A DNA stretch of 64,000 bases from an uncultured Gammaproteobacteria bacterium (GTDB lineage: Bacteria; Patescibacteriota; Patescibacteriia; Magasanikbacterales; GWA2-37-8). Position numbers and translations under genes: made by a program. Of this stretch, positions 6,056 to 63,151 are shown piece after piece. Numbering within the stretch: position 1 is the first letter of the stretch; each line of letters opens with the position of its first letter. The stretch covers positions 12,531 to 76,530 of the forward strand of contig CAZEDL010000006.1 in assembly GCA_964510885.1 (NCBI GenBank), read 5' to 3'. Under the pieces are notes generated by a model. It did no database searches. It was not told the DNA's origin and saw only the letters and a program-made list of their open reading frames with translations.

Positions 6056-7843
6056 TTACTTGGCCAGCTCGGCCTCCCGCAGGATGCGCTCAACCTGGCC
6101 ATTGGTGATGGGGTGGTAGCCGGCCTTAACCTGTTCAAAGACGCGCCGCGCCCAGGCCAGGCCCTGGACGGTCTTCGCCTTGGCCCGCATCAGCGGGAGG
6201 ACGTACTTCATCCGGCCGCCCTCGACCAGGAAGCGCTCGATCTGGTCGTCCACCGCCGTGTAGCCGGACTCGACGGCGAGGAGGAGGAACGCCCACTTGA
6301 TCTCGGCGAAGCGGTTGGTGCTGAGGTTGAACTCGATGTCGAGCTTGGCGACGAACTCCGGGGTGGCCGGGCGCGGTAGCAGTTCCAGGTAAAGCGTCCA
6401 CTGCGGGTCGGACCAGGCCTGGCCGACCTCGCGGGGCGGGATGATGGACTGCTCAGCGTACCGCGCGACGTCGTCGATGAGCAACGACTCGATCTTCGGA
6501 GCGTTCTCGGGCCAGCCTGGCTCGTAGACGTAGCGCCAGGCCTGGACCTGCTCCAGCGCACCCGGCAACTCGGAGGCCACGAAGTCGAGGAAGGTGGCGG
6601 TATCGATGGCCGTGAAGCGGAACCGGGCGATGTAGGCCCGGATGAACCGGTCGAAGCGCTCACGCCCGACCCTCTCCTCGATGGCCCGGATGAACATCGC
6701 CCCCTCGAAGTACGGCACCCGCGAGAAGATGTCGTCGGGGTCGACGGCGCAGGAGATGTGGGTGGACAGGGCGGTAAGCTCGGGAGTGCCGGTCGTGATG
6801 AAGTGGTGGCAGTCCCGGCTGAACTCTCGGCCACGCAGGGCCATCTGCAGGAGGGCCGCGTCGCGGCCATGGAGCGCCTCGTAGATGCGCCACTCGATGT
6901 AGGTCGTCCAGCCCTCGTTGAGCCAGAACGACCGCCAGTCGGCATTGCCGATCAAGTTGCCGGTCCAGGAGTGGGCCAGCTCGTGGCCGACGACAGCCGC
7001 GCCGCCGGGGATTAGGGTGGGTGTCAGGAAGGTGAGCCGCGGGTTCTCCATGCCCCCGTAGGGGAAGGAGGGCGGCAGGATCAACAGGTCGAACCGCTCC
7101 CAGTCGTACGGGCCGAAGAGCCCCTCGGCCACGTCCATCATCTGTCCGACCTGGGCGAACTCAGCAGCCGCCGCGTCGACCAGCTCCACCTCGGACCAGA
7201 CGCGGCAGCGATCGGTGATGTCGCGCGACACCAGGTCGCCGACGGCGATGGCCATGAGGTAGGCCGGGATGCGCTGGGGCATACGGTATCGCTCGATCGC
7301 GAGCTCGCCCTGCTCCTCGCGGCCGAGGTGGTTGGCCGCCATGAGCGCGCGCAGCGCCTTTGGCACCGTGATCTCCGCCGAGTAGCTGAAGCGGATATTG
7401 GGGGTGTTCTGGCACGGCACCAGGCTCGGTGCGTGCAGGGCCTGGAATTGGGTGAACAGGTATGGGTGCCGCTTGCCCTTGGTCTGCTCAGCGCTGAGCC
7501 ACTGGATGCCGCTGGCCTCAGGCGAGGTGTGGTAGCGGATATTGACCCGGGGCTCGTCCTCGGGGACCATGACGTTCAGCCGCTGGCCTAGGACCGGCTT
7601 CGACTCGTGGAGCTGGAACTCCAGGGTCTGACCGGAGTTGTCGGTGACGGCTTCGATGGTGAGGTCCCGGACGTCGAGATCGACCGTGCCGCCCTGGCCG
7701 AAGTCGATAGTGGCGGTGCAGCTAATCGTCCTGGTGGCGAAGTTGATCTGGGCCTGCAGGTGCAGGTGGGTCATCGTCGGCTGACCCGGGCCGTAGTATG
7801 AATGCGGATCGCGCTTGATTGCTGGCATCTGCATCATGCACAT
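6056..7843 (-). CDS. M1-family zinc aminopeptidase (leukotriene A4 hydrolase/aminopeptidase N-like); high-GC gene
   Basis: HELAHSWTGNL...WLNEGWTTY is the HEXXH-(18)-E gluzincin M1 signature. GC is about 66% against about 50% in flanking DNA. The likely start is MCMMQM at 7843, preceded by GGAGAG; the ORF track extends to 7912. Confidence 0.85.
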   Translation of the reverse strand: MCMMQMPAIKRDPHSYYGPGQPTMTHLHLQAQINFATRTISCTATIDFGQGGTVDLDVRDLTIEAVTDNSGQTLEFQLHESKPVLGQRLNVMVPEDEPRVNIRYHTSPEASGIQWLSAEQTKGKRHPYLFTQFQALHAPSLVPCQNTPNIRFSYSAEITVPKALRALMAANHLGREEQGELAIERYRMPQRIPAYLMAIAVGDLVSRDITDRCRVWSEVELVDAAAAEFAQVGQMMDVAEGLFGPYDWERFDLLILPPSFPYGGMENPRLTFLTPTLIPGGAAVVGHELAHSWTGNLIGNADWRSFWLNEGWTTYIEWRIYEALHGRDAALLQMALRGREFSRDCHHFITTGTPELTALSTHISCAVDPDDIFSRVPYFEGAMFIRAIEERVGRERFDRFIRAYIARFRFTAIDTATFLDFVASELPGALEQVQAWRYVYEPGWPENAPKIESLLIDDVARYAEQSIIPPREVGQAWSDPQWTLYLELLPRPATPEFVAKLDIEFNLSTNRFAEIKWAFLLLAVESGYTAVDDQIERFLVEGGRMKYVLPLMRAKAKTVQGLAWARRVFEQVKAGYHPITNGQVERILREAELAK

Positions 7844-8054
7844 GTTGCTCTCCAATGCTGCCCCAACAGCAAGTTGATACGGGGGTGAGTGTGGTTGATT
7901 ATTCAACACCACTCAGCCCCGTATTCTTCAAAGAACAACATGATATATAAGCACTTGTCGCACTGAATGTCAATCGAGAGATAGTCAATATCAGCAATTA
8001 AATTTTCTAAATAAATAGAGGATTATTTTTTGTCACCCTTGATTCGATTCTTAC

Positions 8055-8104: not shown

Positions 8105-8186
8105 TGCCCAGAGAGAGAATCGAACTCTCATGACCGAAGTCGCGGGATTTTGAGTCCCGTGCGTCTACCAATTCCGCCATCTGGGC
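8105..8186 (-). tRNA. tRNA-Leu (anticodon CAA), class II with long variable arm
   Basis: The reverse complement gives GCCCAGA acceptor, a D-arm TGGCGGAATTGGTAGACGC identical to the E. coli tRNA-Leu D-arm, an anticodon loop CUCAAAA, a long variable arm, a T-arm GAGAGTTCGATTCTCTC and discriminator A. No encoded CCA. Confidence 0.9.
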
Positions 8187-12931: not shown

Positions 12932-12960
12932 TTGACAAAATCCTCAAACTGTGCTATACT
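12932..12960 (+). promoter_or_regulatory. Near-consensus sigma70 promoter TTGACA-17-TGcTATACT (extended -10)
   Basis: TTGACA at 12932-12937, TATACT at 12955-12960, TG at -15/-14. Confidence 0.6.
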
Positions 12961-12965
12961 ACCAT

Positions 12966-13056
12966 TTGTGATACAAAGAAAACCTTAGCGCCAACGTATA
13001 ACCCCACTAGTAATAGCGGGGTTATATCGTTTTAAAAGGTATAGATGGCCAAATAG
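12966..13056 (+). ncRNA. Candidate small RNA 1 (about 90 nt), promoter-to-terminator unit
   Basis: It follows the promoter at 12932-12960. It contains the hairpin AACCCC-12nt-GGGGTT (13001-13024) and ends at GGCC-AAATA-GGCC followed by TTTTTT (13037-13056). No plausible ORF and no downstream plus-strand gene. Confidence 0.4.
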
Positions 13057-13082
13057 GCCGTTTTTTGTTTAAGCGTGGTCAA

Positions 13083-13131
13083 TAAACCTCTGGATTCCCG
13101 TTAGAGTTTACCTCCAGCGTAGGCGGGGCGG
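13083..13131 (-). repeat. Palindromic repeat family A, copy 1 (GGATTCCCG...CGGGAATGACA)
   Basis: Its reverse complement (GTCATTCCCGCCCCGCCTACGCTGGAGGTAAACTCTAACGGGAATCC) is near-identical to 52126-52173. Confidence 0.7.
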
Positions 13132-13179
13132 GAATGACACTAAAAAATAGTATTCACCAAGCTTTTTTTCTTTAAACCC

Positions 13180-13207
13180 TTGCATTTTTAGCGATTTTTG
13201 CTATACT
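13180..13207 (+). promoter_or_regulatory. Second near-consensus promoter TTGCAT-16-TGcTATACT
   Basis: TTGCAT at 13180-13185, TATACT at 13202-13207, extended -10 TG. Confidence 0.55.
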
Positions 13208-13212
13208 GCGCG

Positions 13213-13306
13213 CGTAGGCCTCAATCGGGCCTTTGTATCACCTTTGGCATCAAGGCATACCCTTTGAGCCTACATTAAAAACATCCCGTGGCGGGATGTT
13301 TTTTGA
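13213..13306 (+). ncRNA. Candidate small RNA 2 (about 93 nt)
   Basis: It starts after the promoter at 13180-13207. An 8-bp closing stem GUAGGCUC...GAGCCUAC encloses a CCUUUG-repeat region. It ends at the terminator AACATCCCG-tg-GCGGGATGTT followed by TTTTTT (13280-13306), which also serves the convergent gene at 13321. Confidence 0.4.
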
Positions 13307-26080: not shown

Positions 26081-26118
26081 ACTCTTTTCACTGTCTAATC
26101 TTGTGCTATACTTTTATC

Positions 26119-50890: not shown

Positions 50891-50967
50891 TGTCAGAGGG
50901 GAGAATCGAACTCCCGACCTCGGGGTTATGAATCCCGTGCTCTAACCGACTGAGCTACCCTGACAGC
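50891..50967 (-). tRNA. tRNA-Met (anticodon CAT; elongator or Ile2-type, not initiator-like)
   Basis: The reverse complement gives GTCAGGG acceptor, GCTCAGTCGGTTAGAGC D-arm, anticodon loop UUCAUAA and GGGAGTTCGATTCTCCC T-arm. It lacks the three G-C pairs in the anticodon stem typical of initiator tRNA. Confidence 0.85.
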
Positions 50968-51122: not shown

Positions 51123-51947
51123 TTACCACCATGTAATATTGACATGACTCCAGGCCTCCCACCAACGGCTCCAGTTCCATTTCCAGGGCCAACCGTAGGT
51201 GGCCAGCCGCTTCCACCAGGGTGGCAGATGTGTGGTGCCGAAGAGTCGGTCAGCGATAGCCAAGCGACTGGTGATTTCGAGCCACATGCTCGGGCCACCC
51301 TTCATCGAGAAGCCGAACTGGCGGCCATAGCCATGGTGCAATCCATGGTGCGGGCGACAGCCAGCAATCAGCCAGCCATAAGCCCCGGTCGGCTGCCATT
51401 CGGTGTGGAGGGTAAAGTGCACCACATCGATCCACCAGGCTTTGCCGATGGCGTACGTAATGGCCGCTAGCGCCACCCGCGGGCTCAAGAACCAAAGCCA
51501 CCCGAATACCGCCCAGTCAGCGAGGACAGCTGCTGGCATTGAGCGGAGCGGGAAGAAGAGCTCGGACAGATCGCTCGGGTTCGCATGGTGCGCCCCGTGG
51601 CTCCGGCGTGGGCCACGGGGTAAGATTAGGCTCGTCCATTTCAGCACACCGCGCGGCACATGCTGCACATTGCCATGGATGAACCATTCAAGAGAGAGCT
51701 TGATGAACAGAATCAGGCCGATCGCGATGAGGGCGAGCACCCAGTGATGCGGAGTGCTGGTGAAGCGCGGTACGCGAAAAAAGGCGGCAAGATGGGTGAG
51801 GAATAGCAGGGCCAGGAACCACGGGGTCGGCTCCCTGATGATAATGGCGAGCGCCTTCTCAAAGGTGTCAGTGTTCGGAATAAAAAAGCTCGGGCTCGGC
51901 TTGGCGTTAGTCGGAGTCATGGCAAACCTCCTTGCCTTTTTTGGCAT
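51123..51947 (-). CDS. Fatty acid hydroxylase superfamily membrane protein (sterol desaturase-like; histidine boxes)
   Basis: His clusters HGAHH and HHGLHH in a multi-TM context. GC is about 57%, above the background. Confidence 0.55.
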   Translation of the reverse strand: MPKKARRFAMTPTNAKPSPSFFIPNTDTFEKALAIIIREPTPWFLALLFLTHLAAFFRVPRFTSTPHHWVLALIAIGLILFIKLSLEWFIHGNVQHVPRGVLKWTSLILPRGPRRSHGAHHANPSDLSELFFPLRSMPAAVLADWAVFGWLWFLSPRVALAAITYAIGKAWWIDVVHFTLHTEWQPTGAYGWLIAGCRPHHGLHHGYGRQFGFSMKGGPSMWLEITSRLAIADRLFGTTHLPPWWKRLATYGWPWKWNWSRWWEAWSHVNITWW

Positions 51948-52125: not shown

Positions 52126-52173
52126 GTCATTCCCACCCCCGCTTACGCTGGGGGTAAACTCCGGCGGGAATCC
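52126..52173 (+). repeat. Palindromic repeat family A, copy 2
   Basis: GTCATTCCCACCCCCGCTTACGCTGGGGGTAAACTCCGGCGGGAATCC, near-identical to the reverse complement of 13083-13131. Confidence 0.7.
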
Positions 52174-52202
52174 AGTCACGCGTCATCGTACTAGGCTCAA
52201 CC

Positions 52203-52294
52203 TGTCATTCTGAGCGTTAGCGAAGAATCCCTTAAAGTTAAATTTTGGTATTAGTTTTAGCGTCAAGGGATCTTTCACTGCGTTCAGGATGACA
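52203..52294. repeat. MITE-like repeat family B, copy 2 (TIRs TGTCATTCTGAG...TCAGGATGACA)
   Basis: The left arm is near-identical to 13826-13860. The internal inverted repeats are GTCATTCTGAGCGTTAGCGAAGAATCCC and GGGATCTTTCACTGCGTTCAGGATGAC. Confidence 0.7.
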
Positions 52295-54806: not shown

Positions 54807-54866
54807 AATCAGTCCCTAGACTCAGGTACAATATCTCTCTATCTGATTGTACATTTGAGAGGAGTT

Positions 54867-55877
54867 ATGAAGATCAGTTTTGTTATCCCAGCCTACAACG
54901 AACAAGATTATCTCGGCCTCTGCCTTGATTCAGTCCTGCGGGAACTAAGCCGTGGCACCTATGATGCCGAGATTATTGTCGTTAACAACGCCAGCACCGA
55001 CAACACTCCGGCTGTCGCGGCTTCATTCCCGGGCGTCACCGTTGTCACCGAAACCAAAAAAGGCCTCACCGCTGCCCGCGCCGCTGGTTTTCGCGCGGCC
55101 ACGGGCGAACTAATTGCCAATATTGATGCCGATACCATGCTCCCGCCGGGCTGGCTCGCCACCGTTATGGCCGAATTTTCTAAGCGGCCAAATTTAGTGG
55201 CACTCAGCGGCCCCATGGCCTACTACGATGTCCCATTTATGACCAACCTGGCGCGCTGGACATTCTATGGCCTCGCCTACGTATCATACGTGGTTAATAA
55301 ATGCATTCTTAAAATTGGCTCACTGGTGCAAGGGGGTAACTTCGTTGTCCGCCGCTCGGCCCTGCAGCAAATCGGCGGCTATGACACCGCCTTTGAATTC
55401 TATGGCGAAGATGCCGACATGGCCCGCCGCCTCCACAAAGTCGGCGATGTCAGATTTACGTTTCGCTTGCCTATGAATAGCTCCGGCCGCCGCCTGATTG
55501 TCGAAGGCGCCTGGACTACCGCTTATCACTACGCCGCCAATTATTTCTCCACCCTAATTTTAAAAAAACCAATCACCACCACTGCCCGCGCTGTGCGCAG
55601 TGCTGACGTGGAATCGATCGCCGATACTCAGTCGCCGCTGCGCAAAACCGGATTATTTGTCGCCCTCGGCGCGGTTACTCTTGCCGTCATTGGCGCCGGA
55701 GTGCTCGTTGGTAATCAGAACATCGCCAAAAGTAATGGGGCTGTGGCTCGCGTACAACTCGCTATGCCGGCTACCACCGTGAAGCTGGCGCGCCTCGAAG
55801 ATCGTATCTCCACCAAACTACAGGAATGGTACAGCTATATAAAAGATACCGAAGTCTACGAAACGATAACTAACTAG
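54867..55877 (+). CDS. Glycosyltransferase family 2 with a C-terminal TM anchor
   Basis: N-terminal ISFVIPAYNE, a DxD region (NIDADT) and a C-terminal TM helix. The ATG at 54867 is preferred. Confidence 0.85.
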   Translation: MKISFVIPAYNEQDYLGLCLDSVLRELSRGTYDAEIIVVNNASTDNTPAVAASFPGVTVVTETKKGLTAARAAGFRAATGELIANIDADTMLPPGWLATVMAEFSKRPNLVALSGPMAYYDVPFMTNLARWTFYGLAYVSYVVNKCILKIGSLVQGGNFVVRRSALQQIGGYDTAFEFYGEDADMARRLHKVGDVRFTFRLPMNSSGRRLIVEGAWTTAYHYAANYFSTLILKKPITTTARAVRSADVESIADTQSPLRKTGLFVALGAVTLAVIGAGVLVGNQNIAKSNGAVARVQLAMPATTVKLARLEDRISTKLQEWYSYIKDTEVYETITN

Positions 55878-55887
55878 TATAAACCAT

Positions 55888-56214
55888 ATGACTAAAAAAA
55901 TTTTGTTGTTTCTACTTTTGGCAACACTAATTATCCCGGCCACCGCCTCAGCCGACACCTCGACCCCGCCAGCGATTGGGGAACTAAGCCAGCTGCTTGG
56001 CATTAGTAACGACGACATCAAAGCCGAGCTCGCGGCTGGCAAAACCGCCCTCCAGATTGCCGTCGAGCATGGGATGAGAAAAGAGGTTTATTTGAAGCGC
56101 GTCGGCGCTGCAAAATCAGTGGTCAAAACGGCTGCTAAAAAAGTAGTTAAAAAAGCCTCGGCAAAACCGGTAAAAAAGGTTCCGCCTAAAACCATTAAAC
56201 CAGTCAAAAAATAG
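55888..56214 (+). CDS. Small secreted Lys-rich hypothetical protein
   Basis: A signal peptide and a Lys/Ala/Val-rich tail. Confidence 0.4.
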   Translation: MTKKILLFLLLATLIIPATASADTSTPPAIGELSQLLGISNDDIKAELAAGKTALQIAVEHGMRKEVYLKRVGAAKSVVKTAAKKVVKKASAKPVKKVPPKTIKPVKK

Positions 56215-56351
56215 ATTCAATTCTAAATAAATAAAATCCCCGAATTAAGGGGATTTTTCAGTACCGTTATTGTATGCCAAGATTTTTGGCTGTGTTCTGA
56301 GGAGCTGCTATAAAAAATGGCTTAATTTAGCCAAAATATTGCCAAAACCCA

Positions 56352-56380
56352 TTGACAAAACCCTGTTTTTGTGGTATACT
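56352..56380 (+). promoter_or_regulatory. Near-consensus promoter TTGACA-17-TGgTATACT, upstream of the high-GC lipoprotein gene
   Basis: TTGACA at 56352-56357, TATACT at 56375-56380. It is closely similar over about 40 bp to the promoter at 12932-12960. Confidence 0.55.
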
Positions 56381-56517
56381 TATTTGTTTAGTGCCTGAGA
56401 CGTAATATCGAGCCAGTATTTTGCTAAAAATAGCTAAGTAACGCCCTATATACTACTAATCGTACTATATACCGCGGTGCCTAGCACCATAAACTGAAAA
56501 TTGATAGGAGTTCGCTG

Positions 56518-57210
56518 ATGAACAAAAAAATTGGTCAGACCCTTGCGATCCTCGCCACCCTTCTCCTCGGCGCTTGCGGCTCCACGGAGTCGGGGCCGCT
56601 GGAGAAGGATCCTGCGCCCACCGCTCCCCAGACCGTCTACGGCGCCTGCACCTCCGACTCGCAGTGCCCCGGGGGCACGTGCCAGCAGGGCGTCTGCGTG
56701 GTCGAGAAGATCATCACGGTGCCGGCTGAGCCGGTCTGTGGCATCCGCTATAGCAAGCTGGATCTGGCCCCGGTGCCCTCGCGCAGCGAGCCCGTACAGC
56801 CGACCCTCTGCTTCCGCGCCGAGCCCTCGGTCATCTCGCCGAACTGCCAGCCGGTGGCGACCAATTTCGCATTCATCTTCCGCGTCAAGAGCGAGCGCCT
56901 CGACAAAGTCAACGTGATCCCGGGTGCGACCGTCGATGGGCAGAGCGTGGCCTTCCCGCTCCTCAACGGTGGCTCGCTCGGACCGAGCGGCTGGTACTAT
57001 GTCCGCCATGAGATCGCTGGCGTTCGCGACATCGGCAACGGCCTCACCATCTGCGCGCAGTGCACCAACTGCGCCACACCCGACGATCAGCCAAAGCTCG
57101 GTGTCTACATGGAGAGTCGGCTCGAGGGCGTGACGTGGGCCAAGACGCCGACCAGCGCGACCGAGAAGAACTACAGCCTCGACCTGCCCGTGGCGCTCGG
57201 CATCTTCTAG
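56518..57210 (+). CDS. High-GC Cys-rich lipoprotein (hypothetical)
   Basis: Lipobox LLLGAC, a GGAG-type RBS, about 64% GC with strong GC3 bias, and Cys-rich segments (CTSDSQCPGGTCQQGVC, CAQCTNC). Confidence 0.6.
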   Translation: MNKKIGQTLAILATLLLGACGSTESGPLEKDPAPTAPQTVYGACTSDSQCPGGTCQQGVCVVEKIITVPAEPVCGIRYSKLDLAPVPSRSEPVQPTLCFRAEPSVISPNCQPVATNFAFIFRVKSERLDKVNVIPGATVDGQSVAFPLLNGGSLGPSGWYYVRHEIAGVRDIGNGLTICAQCTNCATPDDQPKLGVYMESRLEGVTWAKTPTSATEKNYSLDLPVALGIF

Positions 57211-57257
57211 CCTCTTTTTTACCGCACAGAGCGGTGGGAAGGCCAACTCGACTCAAA

Positions 57258-57324
57258 ACCTCGTGCCTTCCCAACTTTACTTCTAATCAACAGATTGGAG
57301 ATAAAGTTGGCACGAGGTTTTTTG
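57258..57324 (+). terminator. Long hairpin terminator (CCTCGTGCC...GGCACGAGG followed by T6) after the lipoprotein gene
   Basis: Seen in sequence. A second hairpin, AAAAATATCCCGC-taa-GGCGGGATATTTTT at 57338-57372, serves the convergent hup gene. Confidence 0.6.
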
Positions 57325-57383
57325 ATAGCTAAAAATAAAAATATCCCGCTAAGGCGGGATATTTTTTTGTTTTTTTAAGAAGC

Positions 57384-57804: not shown

Positions 57805-58653
57805 TCATTTTTTTACAAATTCTCCGGTTTGTAATTCACGGTATGCCTCATCAATTTCTTCATCCGTATTCATCACGATCGGCCCATACCAGGCAATTGA
57901 TTCGCCAAGCGGTTTTCCTGATACTAACAAAAATCGCGCCCCCGCGCCACCCGAACGCAGCGACACCAGGTCGCCCTGGCGCTCGAATAATACAATCGAT
58001 CCCTGGCCATAATCACTATGGCCGGTGCTTAATCCCACACTACCCTGAAAAATATACAAAAAAGTGGTGTAACCCGACATGACCGGGAAATCAAGCGGCT
58101 CATTTGGCGCGAGCGTAATATCAATATACAGCGGGCTCGCCATAATATCCTGCACCGGCCCGATGGCATCTTTCACCGTGCCGGCGATCACGCGCGCTTT
58201 GGCCGCTGCCCCAATCGACACTTCGGGAATATTCTGGTTTTTCACTTCCTGATAGCGCGGCCGCATCATTTTATCTTTCTGCGGCAAATTTACCCACAAC
58301 TGAAACCCTTGAATCCCGCTCGTGCCCTCGGGCATTTCTTCGTGAATAATGCCGCTCCCCGAAGTCATCCACTGCACATCGCCGCGGCCAATCACGCCGG
58401 CATTCCCAATCGAATCCCGGTGCCGCACATCGCCGCTCAAGATATATGTCACGGTTTCTATGCCGCGATGCGGATGCATGGGGAATCCCTGCAAATAATC
58501 CATCGGATTCGGCGAGCTGAAATCATCGAATAGGAGGAACGGGTCAAAGCGGGGGACTTCGGCGTTGGCAAAGCCGCGGTGGAGGCGTACGCCCGCACCT
58601 TCTAGGGTTTGGCGGGTAGTGAGGACCGAATTGATTATTTTAGTTTGAGACAT
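57805..58653 (-). CDS. Pirin family cupin protein
   Basis: Pirin N-terminal metal-binding motif HPHRGIETVTY and a bicupin architecture. Confidence 0.88.
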   Translation of the reverse strand: MSQTKIINSVLTTRQTLEGAGVRLHRGFANAEVPRFDPFLLFDDFSSPNPMDYLQGFPMHPHRGIETVTYILSGDVRHRDSIGNAGVIGRGDVQWMTSGSGIIHEEMPEGTSGIQGFQLWVNLPQKDKMMRPRYQEVKNQNIPEVSIGAAAKARVIAGTVKDAIGPVQDIMASPLYIDITLAPNEPLDFPVMSGYTTFLYIFQGSVGLSTGHSDYGQGSIVLFERQGDLVSLRSGGAGARFLLVSGKPLGESIAWYGPIVMNTDEEIDEAYRELQTGEFVKK

Positions 58654-62665: not shown

Positions 62666-63151
62666 CTAAATACTGTCCCACTTTACATTAGTCACTCCCG
62701 GTAACCGCAGTATGTTCACTTCTACTTGCGGACGACAACTGCACAGGGCGATCGAAATTCCTGCCCAGGCATCAATCGGTGGAATATGAATCGTGCCGTT
62801 CTCTTCGCTGAATGGCAATTGTTGCAACGCTTGTTGGCATTGCCCGCTGGTGGCGAGCACCGCCACAGTGTGCGCCTGCTCAGCCAGGGTATCACCAAGC
62901 ATCACACTGCTGGTTACCACTTCAGTCACCACTGTTTTCCTATAGCCATAACTATACATCTGTTCGCCGTTACAAAATAATAATGGATTCTGTTTTGATA
63001 CCAAGTATGTGGTTGTAGTAGGCATTATTGGGCTACTGCCCACATCTGATGGGGAATTATCTGCTGTTGGCTCGCGACTGCATCCGGCTCCAATTAGCAG
63101 TAGCGCTGCACCGACAGCCAATAAGTATAAGTAGTTTGCGTGTCTAATCAT
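62666..63151 (-). CDS. Hypothetical lipoprotein
   Basis: Lipobox LIGAGC. Confidence 0.5.
   Translation of the reverse strand: MIRHANYLYLLAVGAALLLIGAGCSREPTADNSPSDVGSSPIMPTTTTYLVSKQNPLLFCNGEQMYSYGYRKTVVTEVVTSSVMLGDTLAEQAHTVAVLATSGQCQQALQQLPFSEENGTIHIPPIDAWAGISIALCSCRPQVEVNILRLPGVTNVKWDSI

Follow-up and report, generated by a model that had tools for sequence, protein, structure and literature searches.

A GC-rich orphan lipoprotein gene behind a strong consensus promoter in a Patescibacteria-like genome: a probable horizontal acquisition

The DNA analysed here is a stretch of 64,000 nucleotides (nt) from contig CAZEDL010000006.1 of the assembly GCA_964510885.1, and is called the window below. 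It contains a gene for a Cys-rich lipoprotein of 230 amino acids (aa), which lies between a GT2 glycosyltransferase gene followed by a small gene, p108, on the left and a convergent HU gene on the right. The gene differs strongly in composition from its surroundings, and it is preceded by a promoter of the host type. The features of the locus are listed below, one per line.

56233..56257, bidirectional: terminator hairpin found by the terminator scan, closing the upstream DedA-GT4-GT2-p108 gene string
56338..56363, forward strand: 13-nt tandem duplication, ATTGCCAAAACCC / ATTGACAAAACCC, found by the repeat search (12/13 identical), with the -35 box inside the second copy
56352..56380, forward strand: predicted sigma-70-type promoter, with -35 TTGACA, a 17-nt spacer and the extended -10 TGTGGTATACT
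56388..56517, forward strand: predicted 5' leader of ~130 nt, AT-rich and ATG-free, with an inferred start site
56518..57210, forward strand: lipoprotein coding sequence (CDS), 230 aa, GC content at third codon positions (GC3) 0.87, predicted signal peptide at residues 1-19, lipobox LGAC at 56566-56577 (Cys20)
56647..56697, forward strand: putative four-cysteine knot CTSDSQCPGGTCQQGVC, residues 44-60, C-x5-C-x4-C-x4-C, predicted local distance difference test score (pLDDT) 86-87
56698..57207, forward strand: C-terminal region of ~170 aa with predicted beta strands, six cysteines and no detectable homolog
57255..57323, forward strand: long interrupted hairpin (13 + 7 + 8 bp), then TTTTTT, -34.5 kcal/mol, z = -7.8
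57337..57366, bidirectional: terminator, 18 nt away from the stop codon of HU (convergent), at the position of the single GT2/HU terminator of the syntenic relative L003 (CAZXIF010000154.1)

The lipoprotein transcription unit is bounded on its left by the terminator at 56233..56257. The open reading frame (ORF) had been placed at 56518-57210 by the original prediction, and these coordinates agree with ours, on the forward strand.

The mean GC content of the window is about 49%. The lipoprotein ORF has a GC content of 0.66, with GC1/GC2/GC3 of 0.60/0.50/0.87. Among the 29 ordinary genes of the window the GC3 is 0.51 ± 0.04, with a maximum of 0.59, and the lipoprotein ORF therefore stands 8.9 standard deviations above the host mean (z = +8.9). 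The comparison of codon usage with the host genes, which had been proposed as a check, was also carried out. The relative synonymous codon usage of the gene correlates at only 0.49 with the host genes, versus 0.80 with a GC-rich M1 peptidase gene (GC3 0.90) and 0.74 with the gene p274, both located in the same window. Gly, Pro, Ala and Val are enriched in the product. An antisense ORF of 266 aa lies opposite the gene; its GC1 of 0.81 and GC3 of 0.59 identify it as a shadow ORF, since the GC3 > GC1 > GC2 pattern fits the forward frame alone, which is therefore the coding frame. The composition changes abruptly at both ends of the gene. The first eight codons (ATG AAC AAA AAA ATT GGT CAG ACC) are AT-rich and host-like, as are the 137 nt on the 5' side of the ATG in their AT content, and the GC step is found at about 56541; on the 3' side, the high GC is gone within ~55 nt of the stop codon.

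L003, the one syntenic relative, has the gene order tRNA, p274, p162, DedA-like, GT2 (67%), HU (88%) and pirin remnants. Its GT2-HU gap is ~150 bp long and contains one bidirectional terminator, with neither p108 nor the lipoprotein gene. Gain in the lineage of the window would be the simplest reading of this comparison, which involves one relative. Horizontal acquisition of the lipoprotein gene from a high-GC donor is well supported by the composition, the codon use, the amino-acid bias and the absence from L003; the foreign origin and the donor-like GC and GC3 of the original prediction are borne out in this respect. Some further differences were seen around the same site. The pirin gene is intact in the window at 57805-58653 and is represented by fragments in L003 (6870-7230, reverse strand), and a serine recombinase gene is located ~3 kb beyond these remnants (L003 9997-11490). 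The p108 gene (55888-56214, forward strand) encodes a secreted protein of 108 aa whose tail is rich in Lys. The gene has a host-like GC content, begins 11 nt behind GT2 and is likewise missing from L003. The p108 and lipoprotein genes may have arrived together.

A joint arrival is also the core of another explanation, in which a block of ~1.45 kb from p108 to the hairpin (~55878-57330) was transferred from a Patescibacterium that had captured the high-GC gene earlier, and in which the promoter looks native as it arose in a related lineage. The lack of both genes in L003 fits with this, as does a promoter architecture common to Patescibacteria loci. Moreover, of the transfers detected into Patescibacteria, most have another Patescibacterium as their source and some a member of another phylum (PMC12455944). 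However, no other Patescibacteria contig with the lipoprotein was found in 15 billion proteins, and the start of p108 so close behind GT2 suggests a member of the GT2 operon. The 13-nt duplication at the -35 box also suggests local promoter evolution, although it could equally have arisen in the donor. The block transfer is considered unlikely.

The abrupt composition step might also suggest an assembly or binning chimera, in which high-GC reads were joined into a low-GC contig. Two Logan contigs cover the order GT2-p108-lipoprotein-HU, one from SRR16481186 (3409 bp, 99.8% identical) and the other from SRR16481187 (1247 bp, 100%). The six mismatches are all inside HU, near a contig end. Both junctions are therefore reproduced independently, with identical sequence, and the step falls on gene signals instead of random positions. 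An artefact of this kind is extremely improbable.

The original prediction had described a TTGACA-17-TATACT promoter with an upstream TG in AT-rich surroundings, and it is located at 56352-56380. This predicted promoter carries the elements of the extended -10 class of sigma-70 promoters (TTGACA, a spacer of 16-18 nt, TGn and TAnnnT); it scores 11/12 with the TG present, and is the top site of the region. Its position upstream of the ORF stands, whereas the distance of 135 nt given earlier differs slightly from the measured gap of 137 nt between the -10 box and the ATG. A Shine-Dalgarno sequence AGGAG is present at 56506-56510, 7 nt on the 5' side of the ATG. The fold of the leader is not significant (z = -1.6), and no Rfam family was found in it under the gathering and E-value thresholds; the leader and the 3' region gave terminator-like noise alone. 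A small hairpin directly follows the stop codon and precedes the long hairpin, which spans 57255-57321 with its T-run (TTTTTT) at 57318-57323. The long hairpin, also seen by the original prediction, combines a stable stem with an immediate U-run, and is predicted to be the intrinsic terminator of the lipoprotein gene itself. Its stem is longer than typical and was overlooked by the simple terminator scan.

It had further been claimed that this promoter is nearly identical over about 40 bp to one at 12932-12960, and suggested that the two represent a shared module, possibly carried with insertions or duplicated. The ungapped comparison of 56352-56380 with 12932-12960 does not agree with this claim. 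The two are identical at 22/29 positions (spacer 10/17), and the likeness is confined to the region from the -35 to the -10 box. The common positions are both hexamers, the AAA and CCT after the -35 box, and the TGTG before the -10 box; upstream of the -35 and downstream of the -10 boxes the match is at background level. The pair was not reported by blastn-short at a word size of 7. In the window, a perfect -35 box and an extended -10 box occur together only in these two promoters. The 11-mer TGTGSTATACT, which covers the second element, is found much more often than expected (5 in the window versus 0.02 expected).

12950, 26102, 44571 and 56370 (forward strand), and 61843 (reverse strand): copies of TGTGSTATACT, from the 11-mer count in the window

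Three of these five sites are not accompanied by a good -35 box and precede the start codon of an ordinary gene by 6-26 nt. The copy at 26102 ends 6 nt on the 5' side of an ATG, which suggests a leaderless mRNA. Promoters of the form TTGAC-N13-TGTGnTAnnnT are also present in unrelated Patescibacteria loci such as L117, L165 (Uhrbacteria), L097 and L105. The enrichment in the window and the recurrence in other loci together indicate a lineage-specific extended -10 consensus. The likeness of the two promoters is best explained by both of them realising the full strong-promoter consensus of the lineage (TTGACA-N12-TGTGSTATACT).

Descent of the two promoters from one element, duplicated or carried with inserted DNA, was weighed against this. 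The overall identity of 22/29 speaks for it, and so does the spacer, which tops all 78 pairs of promoter-like sites in identity (the others reach up to 9). For a single pair the binomial p is 0.003, rising to 0.017 with the TG set aside; however, ~0.24 pairs with at least 10/17 are expected by chance among the 78. An AAAAyCC motif also flanks TTGAC on each side in both promoters. On the other hand, the identity stops at the promoter edges and the flanks are not alignable. The common parts are the -35 box, the A-tract and the genome-wide extended -10 box, and a third copy of the pattern TTGACAAAANCCT is absent from the window. The search for further copies of the module, which had been recommended, was run on the window and 166 related loci; no further copy of the flanks, no identity beyond the promoter elements and no set of more than two copies was detected. 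Moreover, the -35 box lies inside the 13-nt tandem duplication, which argues for local origin or tuning of the promoter rather than an imported module. A shared module is accordingly thought very unlikely, and common descent of the two promoters is given a similarly small chance.

The site at 12932 belongs to the first of two ORF-free units with a promoter and a terminator (12932-13066 and ~13180-13305, forward strand), which are candidate small RNAs; one or the other is the 'sRNA-1' of the original prediction. No Rfam family was assigned to these units, and the best hit, the rimP leader, is at chance level (27 bits versus a cut-off of 47). A palindromic intergenic repeat of ~50 nt is located nearby at 13091-13140 (forward strand) and again at 52135-52185 (reverse strand). 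The two copies are ~90% identical, with the core TGGATTCCCG..GAGTTTACC.CCAGCGTA.GCGGGG.GGGAATGACA. A second long hairpin (GTCATCCTGAACGCAGTGAAAGATCCCTT...AAGGGATTCTTCGCTAACGCTCAGAATGAC) was found at ~52215-52290 (reverse strand). The repeat and this hairpin could represent a small family of structured repeats or a miniature mobile element.

The N-terminus of the product, MNKKIGQTLAILATLLLGAC, has a Lys-Lys n-region, a hydrophobic h-region and the L-G-A-C motif with Cys20. It shows all elements of a signal peptidase II (SPII) lipobox, that is, a charged n-region, a hydrophobic h-region and [LIVMFWSTAG](2)-[LIVMFYSTAGCQ]-[AGS]-C within the first ~35 residues; the lipobox pattern was also matched in L001. 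Another, native lipoprotein-like ORF of the window is located at 62666-63151 (LIGAGC), and one more is found in the relative L084. A Pro/Thr/Ser-rich linker follows the lipobox and precedes the four-cysteine knot. Besides Cys20, the mature protein contains 10 cysteines, at positions 44, 50, 55, 60, 74, 98, 110, 179, 182 and 185. The lipobox and the cysteine motifs of the original prediction are thus confirmed; it had also taken them as consistent with a surface adhesin or toxin-like module, and no toxin or adhesin domain was detected in the lipoprotein by the domain-library scans. Two families came close to residues 44-60. TIGR04201 (Myxo_Cys_RPT) matched this single stretch with 14.2 bits and E = 0.036, below the curated cut-off of 25 bits that defines membership, usually through several repeats. 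The Pfam EB module (PF01683) matched over profile positions 18-39 of 52 with 15.2 bits and E = 0.023, also below its cut-off of 24.3. In the single-sequence AlphaFold2 models, only the knot was predicted with confidence (pLDDT 86-87).

The homology search of the lipoprotein, another of the proposed checks, was also run, and it returned only the protein itself; no relative was detectable among some 15 billion proteins. At full length (E <= 0.01), the word-indexed search of 5.8 billion protein clusters gave the self-match alone, from the two Logan contigs, and a repeat of it with the C-terminal 162 aa (E <= 10) gave nothing. The full phmmer scan of 1.84 billion representatives found only the lipoprotein. 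The tblastn searches against plasmids and phages were negative, and that against the 166 fetched loci gave no match beyond the lipoprotein. No match was found in PHROGs or the IMG/VR viral contigs, and no significant match in Pfam or NCBIfam. The PDB sequences gave one chance match (E = 0.31).

Taken together, the favoured reading is that a complete gene for a secreted, lipid-anchored and disulfide-rich protein was acquired horizontally from an unsampled high-GC donor. The gene would have entered the GT2-HU intergenic space of a Patescibacteria-like genome of ~49% GC, after the split from the L003 lineage. Its transcription would start at a consensus promoter that is among the two strongest in the window (TTGACA, a 17-nt spacer, TGTGGTATACT), run through a leader of ~130 nt and end at the gene's own long hairpin. 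The product is predicted to be exported by Sec, lipidated at Cys20 and anchored on the outside of the cell membrane, where it might display the small four-cysteine knot and the beta-rich domain of ~170 aa, probably with a role at the cell surface or in host contact. Transcription, lipidation, disulfide bonding, surface location and biological role are all read from sequence motifs. As a whole, this reading is held to be probable, with moderate confidence.

Streamlined genomes delete useless DNA quickly. This bears on the suggestion that the gene is an inert passenger, in other words recently acquired GC-rich DNA that is not functionally expressed and whose ORF is open merely for want of stop codons. 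The lack of homologs leaves no evidence of purifying selection, and the GC-rich DNA of this region bears long ORFs in several frames, both of which would suit such a passenger. However, the GC3 periodicity, the signal peptide with its lipobox and the even number of mature cysteines (10) argue against it, as do the AGGAG at 7 nt, the near-perfect promoter, the dedicated terminator and the rapid loss of useless DNA. A passenger without function is therefore regarded as highly unlikely.

Several observations weigh against the favoured reading. Loss in L003, in place of gain here, is still formally conceivable with one syntenic relative. No integrase, transposase, flanking direct repeats or att-like site adjoins the lipoprotein gene; its neighbours are GT2, p108, HU and pirin, and the nearest tRNA gene is 5.5 kb away. 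The lack of a homolog also means no phylogenetic proof of the transfer and no donor. The structure models are poor, with a pLDDT of 41 and 48 for the full length and the mature part, respectively. Among the proteins scanned in the 64-kb window, no lgt or lspA gene (Lgt and LspA domains) was found. Moreover, the high GC ends almost exactly at the CDS, with none upstream and at most ~55 nt downstream. An extra assumption is therefore required, either that the donor flanks were trimmed or that an in-frame junction lies near codon 8. An in-frame junction with a pre-existing native start is possible; the first five codons of p108 (ATGACTAAAAAAATT) and those of the lipoprotein gene (ATGAACAAAAAAATT) are identical at 13/15 nt. 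Another possibility is that an AT-rich initiation region was favoured by selection and the donor flanks were lost.

Other genes of the window have a foreign composition as well. The M1 peptidase gene, of the leukotriene-A4-hydrolase type (6056-7834, reverse strand, GC3 0.90), adjoins a tRNA at 8105-8186 (reverse strand), and a promoter-like TTGACA near 7975 suggests a host-type promoter with a long leader. Its best homolog besides itself is 59% identical and is located in a metagenome-assembled genome (MAG) of 63% GC (GCA_030649845.1), where its composition is native. The named relatives of the M1 peptidase, at 47-56% identity, include Candidatus Uhrbacteria, Candidatus Magasanikbacteria and Patescibacteria, and also Kofleriaceae, Myxococcaceae and Myxococcales. 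As this gene also has no close donor, the donors of the high-GC genes of this genome appear to be poorly sampled, so that a lipoprotein without relatives is less surprising. The p274 gene encodes a histidine-rich membrane protein of 274 aa (51123-51947, reverse strand, GC3 0.73); it adjoins the tRNA at 50891-50964 and has no Pfam match. Its ortholog in L003 (2360-3103, reverse strand) is 53-63% identical, with a GC3 of 0.83 against a background of ~0.5, and its acquisition therefore appears to be older than that of the lipoprotein gene. Either both lineages kept the high GC3, or the gene was exchanged more than once at this site. The GT2 gene (54855-55877, forward strand; considered together with the loci L003-L082) has a slightly raised GC3 of 0.60. 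Its closest named relatives are divided between Patescibacteria MAGs (54-57%) and Alphaproteobacteria such as Devosia, Pelagibacterium and Stellaceae (50-54%), and the named relatives also include Saccharibacteria and Kaiserbacteria MAGs; GT2 may be an older transfer. Between the tRNA at 50.9 kb and HU, foreign cell-envelope genes seem to have accumulated over time. That the host is probably a Patescibacterium is judged from its gene content and from the named relatives of GT2 and M1.

A recurrent hotspot next to HU was also considered. All fetched loci were screened for lipobox ORFs with outlying GC3, and the screen gave only this gene and junk ORFs of uniformly high-GC genomes. The hotspot is therefore not supported, apart from a milder case in L084. 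The gene in L084 (759-1184, forward strand) encodes another Cys-rich lipoprotein of 141 aa (LATGC) and lies in a locally GC-rich stretch (GC3 0.69 versus ~0.5) upstream of HU (HU 84% identical). It matches the MXAN_6577-like Cys-rich family weakly (E = 0.02, below the cut-off), and its promoter is TTGACC-N12-TGTGCTAGGGT. The L084 lipoprotein is not homologous to that of the window.

A more specific origin can be imagined, in which the lipoprotein is a surface module from the high-GC partner or host of the bacterium itself, possibly Myxococcota-like, and in which the gene came to stand behind a top-strength promoter of an epibiotic Patescibacterium to mediate or mimic contact with the host surface. 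Two weak leads point toward a Myxococcota-like partner: the sub-threshold match to the Cys repeat, and the Kofleriaceae and Myxococcaceae among the M1 relatives. No link of Patescibacteria to myxobacterial hosts was found in the literature, and a partner of this kind is a speculative and very improbable source. Saccharimonadia epibionts and their high-GC actinobacterial hosts show gene transfers that have served as evidence of their association (bioRxiv 10.64898/2026.09.16.751625). If the host-derived origin were true, such unameliorated orphan genes could help to trace the host. Patescibacteria depend on other cells, and surface proteins are likely contact points. A freshly acquired and strongly promoted orphan lipoprotein would thus be a reasonable candidate for a contact role, and might in principle point to its donor or to the host. 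The case also adds one more transfer into a streamlined genome, and gives a clear view of the promoter consensus of the lineage.

Comparison with known systems showed several similarities. Like SPII lipoproteins of the PROSITE PS51257 type, the product has the Lys-Lys n-region, the h-region, L-G-A-C at Cys20 and the Pro/Thr/Ser linker; however, none of the libraries searched contained a relative of its mature part, and its lipidation is predicted from the motif. The four-Cys spacing and the Gly positions of residues 44-60 are similar to those of TIGR04201 and the EB module, and a position directly behind a lipobox is usual for such a knot in myxobacterial lipoproteins; however, only one copy is present here and the scores are below the cut-offs, which indicates resemblance and not membership. 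The promoter shares TTGACA, the 17-nt spacer and TGTGG-TATACT with extended -10 (TGn) sigma-70 promoters, whereas this lineage carries the longer consensus TGTGSTATACT. The gap of 137 nt to the ATG is unusual locally, since the other promoters of that type in the window are found 6-26 nt from the start codons. In comparison with the documented horizontal genes and islands of Patescibacteria (PMC12455944), the lipoprotein gene has no namable donor or homolog and no mobile-element genes nearby, and its foreign composition is nearly confined to the CDS. It is nevertheless similar to them as a single gene of foreign composition in a streamlined genome, placed in a variable cell-envelope region that starts at the tRNA at 50891-50964, with other foreign-looking genes in the same window. 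The event would be of an ordinary kind, the horizontal transfer of a surface-protein gene, and its product belongs to an orphan family.

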